A stretch of 64,000 nucleotides of DNA, from NCBI GenBank assembly GCA_964383495.1, contig CAYLHG010000002.1:94137-158136 (forward strand), read 5' to 3'. Numbering within the stretch: position 1 is the first letter of the stretch; each line of letters opens with the position of its first letter. The translations under genes were made by a program, and so were the position numbers. A model generated the notes under the pieces. That model worked only from the letters and a program-made list of their open reading frames with translations. It had not been told where the DNA came from and did not search any database. The DNA comes from an uncultured Gammaproteobacteria bacterium. Lineage in GTDB: Bacteria > Pseudomonadota > Gammaproteobacteria > JABCZS01. Below are positions 35,063-35,413 of this stretch, one piece after another.

Positions 35063-35413
35063 TTACTTCATATTAGGTTGAGCAGAGGGCGTATTTTGAG
35101 CAGCATCAAAATTATAAGTCCATTGGAAATACCATTGAGGATCCCCTCCATTAGCTTGTTTAGCTGCTTCAATTTCTGCGCCACCGTCTTTTACCGCTTT
35201 CGATAAGAGCTCAAAGCTCAAACTATCTGTTGTCTTACTGCTGTTACCAAAAGATACTACACTTCCTCTGTTCTCAGCGATTAATCCCGAAAAATCAGCT
35301 TTTTGAGCGAGCGCTCTGAATGCTTCAAATTGACTAGGAGTCAACCCAGCACCTAAATGTTGTTCCAATTTTGCTTGCAGTGATGCAACAGGACCTTGTA
35401 CAAGAGCTGTCAT
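35063..35413 (-). CDS. Candidate RiPP precursor peptide (116 aa, Cys-free, aromatic-rich C-terminal core).
   Basis: GGAG SD 8 nt upstream of the ATG. No Cys. C-terminus GGDPQWYFQWTYNFDAAQNTPSAQPNMK. Translationally coupled to the rSAM gene. The assignment is inference from context. Confidence 0.5.
   Translation of the reverse strand: MTALVQGPVASLQAKLEQHLGAGLTPSQFEAFRALAQKADFSGLIAENRGSVVSFGNSSKTTDSLSFELLSKAVKDGGAEIEAAKQANGGDPQWYFQWTYNFDAAQNTPSAQPNMK

Follow-up and report, generated by a model that had tools for sequence, protein, structure and literature searches.

A probable daropeptide-type peptide cluster with a tandem Trp-x-aromatic core and a DarE-like radical SAM enzyme in an uncultured gammaproteobacterium

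The locus described here lies in a 64,000-nucleotide stretch of DNA (the window) from an uncultured Gammaproteobacteria bacterium of the GTDB lineage JABCZS01 (GenBank assembly GCA_964383495.1, contig CAYLHG010000002.1, positions 94,137 to 158,136), and centers on a small open reading frame (ORF) at 35063..35413 on the minus strand. The ORF encodes a 116-aa peptide with the C-terminus ...GGDP-QWYFQWTYNF-DAAQNTP-SAQP-NMK, exactly as translated in the original prediction, which had read it as a candidate precursor of a peptide made by the ribosome and modified after translation (RiPP). It belongs to a string of same-strand genes that runs, in order, from an ATP-binding cassette (ABC) exporter half-transporter (ABC-1) across a 209-nt gap to the precursor, an enzyme of the radical S-adenosylmethionine (rSAM) type, a second ABC half-transporter (ABC-2), and an alpha/beta-hydrolase, and is flanked by rho and the convergent gene pth. 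The rSAM start codon (ATG, 35061) is 1 nt from the stop codon of the precursor. The locus most probably represents a daropeptide-type (darobactin-like, type II/III-like) RiPP cluster, the product of which would carry two Trp-x-aromatic ether rings.

All six aromatic residues of the precursor (two Trp, two Tyr, and two Phe) fall within the nine residues W94-F102. In the six-frame translation of the window, only 5 of 82,073 stop-free 9-mers contain at least six aromatic residues including at least two Trp, and this rarity, together with the exact translation, indicates that the precursor observation is real. The peptide is predicted to consist of a leader of ~93 residues (M1-Q93, 35135..35413), a nine-residue core (W94-Y-F-Q-W98-T-Y-N-F102, 35108..35134), and a 14-residue follower (D103-K116, DAAQNTPSAQPNMK, 35066..35107), all encoded on the minus strand. 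The core places the aromatic1-X2-aromatic3 motif near the precursor C-terminus in two such units, W94-Y-F96 and W98-T-Y100, and ends in Y-N-F. The leader contains a conserved helix (...LQAKLEQHLGAGLTPSQFEAFRALAQK...), a linker rich in Gly, Ser, Thr, and Asn, and a second helix; the earlier description of a leader-like N-terminus with a helix and a Gly/Ser linker is roughly right, as residues 42-66 are 56% G/S/T/N, and a single-sequence AlphaFold2 model places helices at residues 3-20, 26-37, and 67-87 and disorder at 39-64, at a mean predicted local distance difference test score (pLDDT) of only 54.7. The 17-residue, Pro-bounded string QWYFQWTYNFDAAQNTP of the original prediction does hold two Trp, two Tyr, and two Phe between P92 and P109, but only 16 residues (Q93-T108) separate the two prolines, and the count of 17 includes P109.

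The precursor gene looks expressed, because a Shine–Dalgarno sequence (AAGGAG, 35427..35422) precedes its ATG by 8 nt and a sigma-70-like promoter candidate (TTGACT-18-TATACT, 35511..35540, minus strand, 10 of 12 positions) lies ~100 nt upstream, in the gap after ABC-1. This candidate is the top-scoring minus-strand site in a scan in which the regional total of sites was no higher than in shuffled sequences, and is only suggestive as the promoter of the precursor operon. The identical precursor gene is present on four short contigs, all of which derive from one set of sequencing runs.

The precursor has no recognizable relative at the sequence level: a word-indexed search returned the query itself only, and an exhaustive HMMER search of 1.84 billion representative proteins returned the query plus one repeat artefact, with no real homolog. 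The artefact, a 2109-aa repetitive ORF (P0149), was rejected as a precursor homolog, its E-value of 2e-12 arising from ~20 repeats of a weak 30-aa match. The surroundings of the nearest relatives of the rSAM enzyme (43-51% identity) are more informative. In all seven of these contexts, a small ORF ending in W-x-[FYW]-...-F lies directly upstream of the rSAM gene, and the precursor–rSAM arrangement of the window is thereby repeated in loci L089-L092 and L173-L175, which supports the assignment of the window ORF as a RiPP precursor. The C-termini of these ORFs, each followed by the stop codon, read ...RSSEWEYTVWQYPFRP (L089), ...EKEAGWTFQWTYNF (L090), ...HVSGWQFNAWDFAFK (L091), ...KAAAAWQWTYKF (L092), ...SLSSWTYRF (L173), ...EEVANWTYTF (L174), and ...KKDDWTYTIWSWKF (L175), and those upstream of two Photorhabdus rSAM genes (L017 and L018) read ...LSQWTFRF and ...LSQWTYRF.

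The ends of the relatives, (G)WTFQWTYNF, (A)WQWTYKF, WEYTVWQYPF, WQFNAWDFAF, WTYTIWSWKF, (S)WTYRF, and WTYTF, point to W-x-[FY]-x(1-2)-W-x-[FYW]-x-F as the conserved core pattern, with W94-F102 as its counterpart in the window. W94, W98, and F102 are invariant on alignment (alignments A3 and A5), which makes the aromatic C-terminal block the conserved and presumably modified part of the precursor, as the original prediction had it, and the position-3 residues of the core units are always Phe, Tyr, or Trp among the aligned precursors. Conservation extends to the leader, in which the helix motif KLExxLxxxLTxxQxxAFxxL is common to the window and five long related precursors. The core of one relative, WTFQWTYNF, is identical to that of the window at eight of nine positions, while the leader of the same precursor is only ~31% identical. 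The prolines that the original prediction took as core boundaries show no conservation: in the relatives, the first Trp is preceded by Gly, Ala, Glu, Asp, Ser, Asn, or Gln, none of them has Pro at position -2 from this Trp, and all nine related precursors read stop 0-2 residues past the final Phe. Because the relatives end there, P109 and P113 of the follower are confined to this locus, as is the follower itself among the related precursors read. Judged from this alignment, the core is the 9-mer W94-F102 and not the Pro-to-Pro 17-mer.

The rSAM gene (33739..35061, minus strand) encodes a 440-aa DarE-like radical SAM/SPASM peptide maturase with Pfam matches to Radical_SAM (59.2 bits) and SPASM (28.4 bits). 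The cluster-binding motif C90-x3-C94-x2-C97 is present and invariant, and Cys327, Cys333, Cys349, Cys396, Cys402, Cys406, Cys424, and Cys425 are invariant across 29 homologs. The top NCBIfam matches are DarW (NF041300, 450.4 bits) and DarE (NF038005, 424.7 bits), both of which have a cut-off of 650 bits, followed by an anaerobic sulfatase maturase family (242 bits), DynA (203 bits), and the cyclophane enzymes AmcB, YhhB, GrrM, FxsB, and XyeB (99-146 bits). The enzymes of Photorhabdus, Yersinia, and Klebsiella exceed the DarE cut-off (683 bits for Photorhabdus), and none of the nearest relatives of the window enzyme reaches the DarE or DarW cut-off. No source for the name DarW turned up in the literature consulted, and all 18 homologs scanned stay below the DarW cut-off; the model is used here as the nearest one only. 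On these scores, the window enzyme is a homolog of DarE and not an equivalog. An assignment as an XyeB-type three-residue cyclophane enzyme was rejected, as the family models score far below their cut-offs (XyeB 99.3 versus 450, GrrM/OscB 128.1 versus 310, and FxsB 100.2 versus 370 bits). The earlier proposal of Omega-X-X triplets processed by a cyclophane-forming rSAM enzyme is therefore partly right: the enzyme is DarE-like rather than XyeB/GrrM/FxsB-like, and the relevant register is aromatic1-X2-aromatic3 (WYF and WTY) rather than aromatic-X-X.

The 242-bit match to the sulfatase maturase family (TIGR03942) could be taken to mean that the small ORF is not a substrate at all, and that the rSAM enzyme acts on another protein as an anaerobic sulfatase-maturase-type enzyme. 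This is extremely improbable: the score is below the 349-bit cut-off of that family and far under those for DarW and DarE, the neighborhood in the window contains no sulfatase gene, and the small ORF with its C-terminal motif is kept upstream of seven relatives.

More than 600 homologs of the rSAM enzyme were found at E <= 1e-20, the closest among the matches listed being only 51% identical. A genome scan with the single rSAM query gave no match, and alignment-based scans of genomes and metagenomes returned at least 600 stretches, mostly from distant high-GC relatives with unrelated or uninterpretable upstream ORFs; what could be learned from these scans was limited to Photorhabdus, Vibrio, and a small number of Trp-rich precursors. 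Upstream of distant DarE-like rSAM genes (L015, L022, L024, L026-L029, and L032), other Trp-rich candidate precursors are found, such as ...SPTWNWVYRF (Vibrio profundi), LNLRIWFRIWVRFWFRI (Larkinella and an alphaproteobacterial metagenome-assembled genome), WTDAWVDSNGWGTDVWENSW, and GWSTWDRSAPPGSTWIRS. The leader helix of the window precursor (VASLQAKLEQHLGAGLTPSQFEAFRALAQKA, 35413..35290, minus strand) also resembles the first ~35 residues of the rSAM enzyme itself (TVSSMIEQFAETLSTEEFELLGRYLDA, 35061..34950, minus strand). An hhalign comparison of six leaders with seven rSAM N-termini gave a score of 23.3 (P 1.5e-4), against a mean of 8.2 and a maximum of 19.9 in 100 column shuffles, none of which reached 23.3, and 9.4 in a reversed control; leader mimicry or a shared ancestry may explain the likeness.

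The chemistry of the cross-links can be approached through the characterized members of the class. Guo et al. have shown that DarE alone forms both the Trp1-O-Trp3 ether and the Trp3-Lys5 C–C bond of darobactin, and that DarEpa acting on the Photorhabdus WT(F/Y)RF core forms one Trp-to-Phe/Tyr ether (+14 Da) (PMC9055067). Daropeptides, which have been mined through a C-terminal aromatic1-X2-aromatic3 motif, are divided into type I (darobactin), type II (photorhaptin, with a single ether), and type III (with several ethers) (PMC10849128), and the aromatic1-X2-aromatic3 register is reported to give ether links in this enzyme family (PMC9055067, PMC10849128, PMC12912966). Woodard et al. linked the formation of ethers to the presence of an aromatic residue where the C-beta radical arises, found that DarE requires its first ~60 residues for processing, and observed that DarE makes fused diether rings on the K5F variant, in which position 5 is Phe (PMC10705402). 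The terminal WTYNF of the window core closely resembles the Photorhabdus type II core WT(F/Y)RF, and multi-ether (type III) daropeptides have, as far as the accounts in PMC10849128 and PMC10705402 go, already been described.

By analogy, the window rSAM enzyme would bind the leader helix and would abstract a C-beta hydrogen from the position-3 aromatic residue of each aromatic1-X2-aromatic3 unit, as DarE and PasB do, so that a three-residue ring would be closed from the Trp indole to the position-3 C-beta, most plausibly as an ether (C–O–C, +14 Da). From the conserved register we infer that rings would form from W94 to F96 and from W98 to Y100, which changes the calculated mass of WYFQWTYNF from 1353.58 Da in the unmodified form to 1381.54 Da with two ethers. 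A further fused ring from Y100 to F102 is conceivable, because W98-T-Y100-N-F102 keeps the darobactin W1-x-W3-x-K5 register, positions 3 and 5 being aromatic. Taken furthest, the alternating aromatic residues W94, F96, W98, Y100, and F102 would be joined by the one rSAM enzyme into a contiguous ladder of three or four fused ether or C–C rings, with the Y-x-F end unmasked after export by the hydrolase removing the follower. This extension is distinctly unlikely; if true, it would yield a poly-fused daropeptide from nature, which PMC10705402 allows for, and would make the hydrolase the first maturation protease dedicated to the daropeptide class.

Several points weigh against the assignment of the locus to the daropeptides with two ether rings. 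The related precursors were identified by their position beside the nearest rSAM relatives, since the precursor has no sequence homolog, and the sample of loci read is limited. In the first unit, X2 (Tyr95) is an aromatic residue too, a deviation from the motif as published. The enzyme falls below both 650-bit cut-offs and forms a lone deep branch in a rough neighbor-joining tree of 124 homologs, so that its chemistry may differ from that of DarE or PasB, and PasB-like enzymes are known to make C–C cyclophanes on aromatic-X-X motifs (PMC12912966). These last points, together with the common origin reported for the enzymes that form three-residue cyclophanes (3-CyFEs) and the daropeptide maturases (PMC12912966), favor an alternative in which the rSAM enzyme forms triceptide-like C–C cyclophane links (-2 Da each) instead of ethers on the aromatic core. 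This alternative is nevertheless unlikely, given that ethers are the reported outcome in this family for aromatic residues at position 3, with their benzylic C-beta radical (PMC10705402, PMC9055067), and that the conserved position-3 residues here are always Phe, Tyr, or Trp. Ether rings thus remain the preferred expectation for the daropeptide-type core.

After modification, the peptide would be exported by the two ABC half-transporters. ABC-1 (35623..37440, minus strand) combines a transmembrane and a nucleotide-binding domain (Pfam ABC_membrane and ABC_tran), and its top NCBIfam matches are exporter families, every one below its cut-off. ABC-2 (31703..33727, minus strand, 674 aa) is a second, divergent half-transporter with the same two Pfam domains and 30% identity to ABC-1 over the nucleotide-binding domain. 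Domain and family scans of the cluster proteins detected neither a peptidase domain in the two half-transporters nor a membrane-fusion partner. An ABC gene also follows the rSAM gene in L090 and L174. Just after rho, a hairpin resembling a terminator (TGCGCCTTGCGGCGCA and then a run of T, 37412..37427, minus strand) lies within the 5' extension of the longest ABC-1 ORF, and the real start of ABC-1 is therefore probably the ATG at 37380 (MSFQALPK...). A start at 37380 leaves almost no space for a promoter of its own.

The leader and follower would then be cut off by proteases. In darobactin, the leader and the QEI follower are removed by host hydrolases that have yet to be identified, and no protease is encoded in the cluster (PMC9055067). 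The adjacent secreted hydrolase is a candidate only. Its gene (30778..31686 from the ATG, or to 31698 with a GTG start, minus strand) begins 16 nt past the ABC-2 stop codon on the same strand, and is probably co-transcribed with the cluster; its membership in the pathway is tentative. The 306-aa protein has the signal-peptide-like N-terminus and the G-G-S145-E-G-G motif that the original prediction noted, and contains a GxSxGG elbow with Ser (S145), Asp (D256 or D263), and His (H286) in that order. It belongs to a small, uncharacterized family of 27 homologs, all with signal-peptide-like N-termini, in which G143, S145, E146, G147, G148, D263, and H286 are invariant and D256 nearly so (alignment A2, 26 homologs). 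The AlphaFold2 model (mean pLDDT 90.9) shows one alpha/beta domain with a helical cap at residues ~170-245 and no beta-propeller.

The Pfam matches of the hydrolase are weak and lie within ~4 bits of each other (Hydrolase_4/S33 30.7, Abhydrolase_3 27.3, and Peptidase_S9, PF00326, 26.5), and the PF00326 match, against a cut-off of 22.6 bits, covers residues 216-295 only, with no stretch significant by itself. In Foldseek searches, cinnamoyl and feruloyl esterases rank first (E ~3e-14, TM ~0.6), and DPP-IV, prolyl tripeptidyl peptidase, and prolyl oligopeptidase (POP) catalytic domains follow within one to two orders of magnitude; since the top fold matches are esterases, GxSxGG is not diagnostic of S9, contrary to its earlier use as a hallmark. 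Direct sequence matches in the PDB are marginal and are to esterases or lipases. The family profile gives only marginal PDB matches as well, led by lysosomal Pro-X carboxypeptidase (S28, E 7e-4) and followed by dienelactone hydrolase, an S9C peptidase, and an esterase. Over the 26 family members, weak Pfam matches are to S9 in 20, Hydrolase_4/S33 in 16, Abhydrolase_3 in 16, and S28 in 6. Peptidase activity is thus neither shown nor excluded by the sequence and the model, and the S9/POP assignment is not supported for a single-domain protein of this size with equally weak and ambiguous matches.

The genomic distribution of the family bears on its role. Homologs with 70, 61, 49, and 43% identity occur in unrelated contexts (near rpsF, next to HicAB, and after a ribosomal-protein operon), none of them with rSAM, ABC, or precursor genes beside it, and the flanks of the window share no synteny with the contexts of the two closest homologs (70% and 61%). 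A tblastn search of 176 retrieved loci with the hydrolase matched only the five loci obtained via hydrolase homologs and no rSAM-derived locus. Comparative genomics hence argues against a conserved pathway role for the hydrolase. In L086 (9029..11005), the 49%-identical homolog adjoins a CT_504-like gene after a ribosomal-protein/secY/rpoA operon on a Chlamydia-like contig, and the hydrolase family therefore seems to be common to different intracellular or amoeba-associated lineages.

Against this background, the proposal of a Pro-to-Pro 17-mer product (~2.2 kDa), released in the periplasm by an S9 POP-like hydrolase cleaving after P92 and P109, becomes very unlikely. It draws on the same-strand position of the secreted hydrolase behind ABC-2, its G-x-S-x-G-G motif with conserved Asp and His, the weak family matches to Pro-specific enzymes (Peptidase_S9 in 20 of 26, S28 in 6 of 26, and the Pro-X carboxypeptidase as best PDB profile match), and the coincidence that, among the loci read, the sole precursor with a long follower is found at the sole locus with such a hydrolase beside the rSAM gene. 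Neither proline is conserved, however, and the relatives end at the last Phe; the hydrolase lacks a beta-propeller, has esterases as its best fold matches, and scores about equally with S33, Abhydrolase_3, and S9; its homologs stand apart from rSAM, ABC, and precursor genes; and its base composition (GC content 43.1%, 35.0% at third codon positions, GC3) resembles that of the flanking genes more than that of the rSAM gene (GC 36.4%, GC3 28.6%). The co-occurrence of follower and hydrolase, combined with the operon-like position of the gene, also speaks for a milder alternative, in which the daropeptide-type cluster and core are retained and the hydrolase trims the follower, and perhaps leader remnants, after export without Pro specificity, exposing Y-N-F. 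The fold is compatible with serine peptidases of families S9, S28, and S33, and a protease for follower and leader removal is missing from the darobactin cluster (PMC9055067). The association is seen at a single locus, members of the hydrolase family are common in unrelated surroundings, Chlamydia-like contigs among them, and esterase or lipase activity is equally compatible, which leaves this role tentative and, on balance, doubtful.

The cluster part at 32500..37000 (rSAM, precursor, and ABC-1) has a GC content of about 36.5-39%, compared with 43-49% in the flanking housekeeping genes. This is compatible with, and not conclusive for, acquisition of the rSAM/precursor/ABC-1 part as an island, the spread in GC among housekeeping genes being too wide. 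An Rfam scan of the 64-kb window at the gathering threshold detected one tRNA only, at 28077..28148 on the plus strand between ispE and prs, and no RNA element in the cluster. The Rho protein groups with that of a metagenome-assembled genome labeled 'Gammaproteobacteria bacterium'. A 222-aa protein encoded between rho and fba (39286..39954, plus strand) contains a eukaryote-type U-box (E3 ubiquitin ligase, Pfam PF04564, 46.8 bits), which suggests that the organism may be host-associated, with a Legionella-like lifestyle.

Other features appear in the related loci. In L174, the 28-aa precursor ORF (MINELLVEIETDAKNAIMEEVANWTYTF, 5831..5917, plus strand) upstream of the rSAM gene lacks a gene call in the source annotation, and in L173 the 35-aa precursor (...SWTYRF) lies beside YcaO/TfuA/ThiF/ThiS and nonribosomal peptide synthetase genes. 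A membrane protein of ~160 aa is encoded directly after the rSAM gene in L092 (9322..9807) and L174 (7567..8064); the two proteins share 37% identity (E 2e-34) and the motif LIREP[FL]MN[WY], are absent from the window and from every other locus retrieved, and might serve as an immunity or transport accessory. A GNAT gene is located downstream in L092, as in the Photorhabdus pas cluster.

New scaffolds that act against Gram-negative bacteria are few, and the darobactin class is one of them, so that natural variants with other ring patterns are wanted. The locus and the small, low-GC metagenomic group around it extend the class with enzymes that fall under the DarE and DarW thresholds and with precursors that sequence searches miss and that bear Trp-x-aromatic units in tandem. 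Two nearly identical cores, WYFQWTYNF from the window and WTFQWTYNF from a relative, offer test substrates for the question of whether discrete or fused ether rings occur in nature. The locus also illustrates that a GxSxGG hydrolase beside a RiPP cluster, together with prolines around an aromatic block, is insufficient to infer POP-type excision.

Compared with the triceptides and other products of three-residue cyclophane enzymes (XyeB, GrrM/OscB, FxsB, and MicB), the window system shares a SPASM rSAM enzyme and the predicted three-residue rings on aromatic residues, but its enzyme reaches only 99-128 bits with the family models, which have cut-offs of 310-450 bits, and the motif is aromatic-X-aromatic rather than aromatic-X-X. 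The POP-type RiPP peptidases (GmPOPB, OphP, and FlaP) share with the window hydrolase a Ser-Asp-His alpha/beta-hydrolase domain and the GxSxGG elbow. They are proteins of ~700 aa in which a beta-propeller gates the substrate. The window hydrolase, in contrast, is a secreted single domain of 306 aa with a helical cap, and its relatives are not linked to RiPP genes.

Judged from its genes, the locus probably adds a divergent new member to the known daropeptide class. The type III 'orphan' daropeptides, with a published set of 86 precursors from 11 genera and an example from Rhizobium sullae (Ma et al. 2023, as relayed in PMC10849128 and PMC10705402), likewise have more than one aromatic1-X2-aromatic3 unit per core and a single DarE-like enzyme; compared by description with what these sources relay, the window group comes from uncultured low-GC hosts and has a long leader with a helix and the core W-x-O-x(1-2)-W-x-O-x-F. 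The darobactin system (type I, DarA/DarBCD/DarE) resembles the window in its rSAM/SPASM enzyme with an N-terminal extension, its Trp-x-aromatic core ending in Phe, the ABC exporter genes in the cluster, and the follower of some DarA sequences. It differs in that the rSAM enzymes are only ~40% identical, and in that the window has its precursor directly upstream of the rSAM gene, encodes no DarC-like membrane-fusion protein, and lacks the W-N-W-x-K-x-F core; because there is no Lys or Arg at position 5, no Trp–Lys C–C link is expected in the window core. A close parallel in the core is photorhaptin A from the pas cluster of Photorhabdus asymbiotica (PasA/PasB, also DarApa/DarEpa; PMC9055067), which shares the W-T-[F/Y]-x-F core (WTFRF or WTYRF there, WTYNF here), a DarE-like rSAM enzyme, one expected Trp-to-aromatic3 ether per unit, and the absence of the canonical DarBCD set. 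With the DarE model, the enzyme from Photorhabdus scores above the cut-off (683 bits) and that of the window below it (425 bits), and the window, without a GNAT gene, has a ~93-aa leader with a conserved helix, a 14-aa follower, two ABC exporters, and a core extended by an additional upstream W-Y-F unit.

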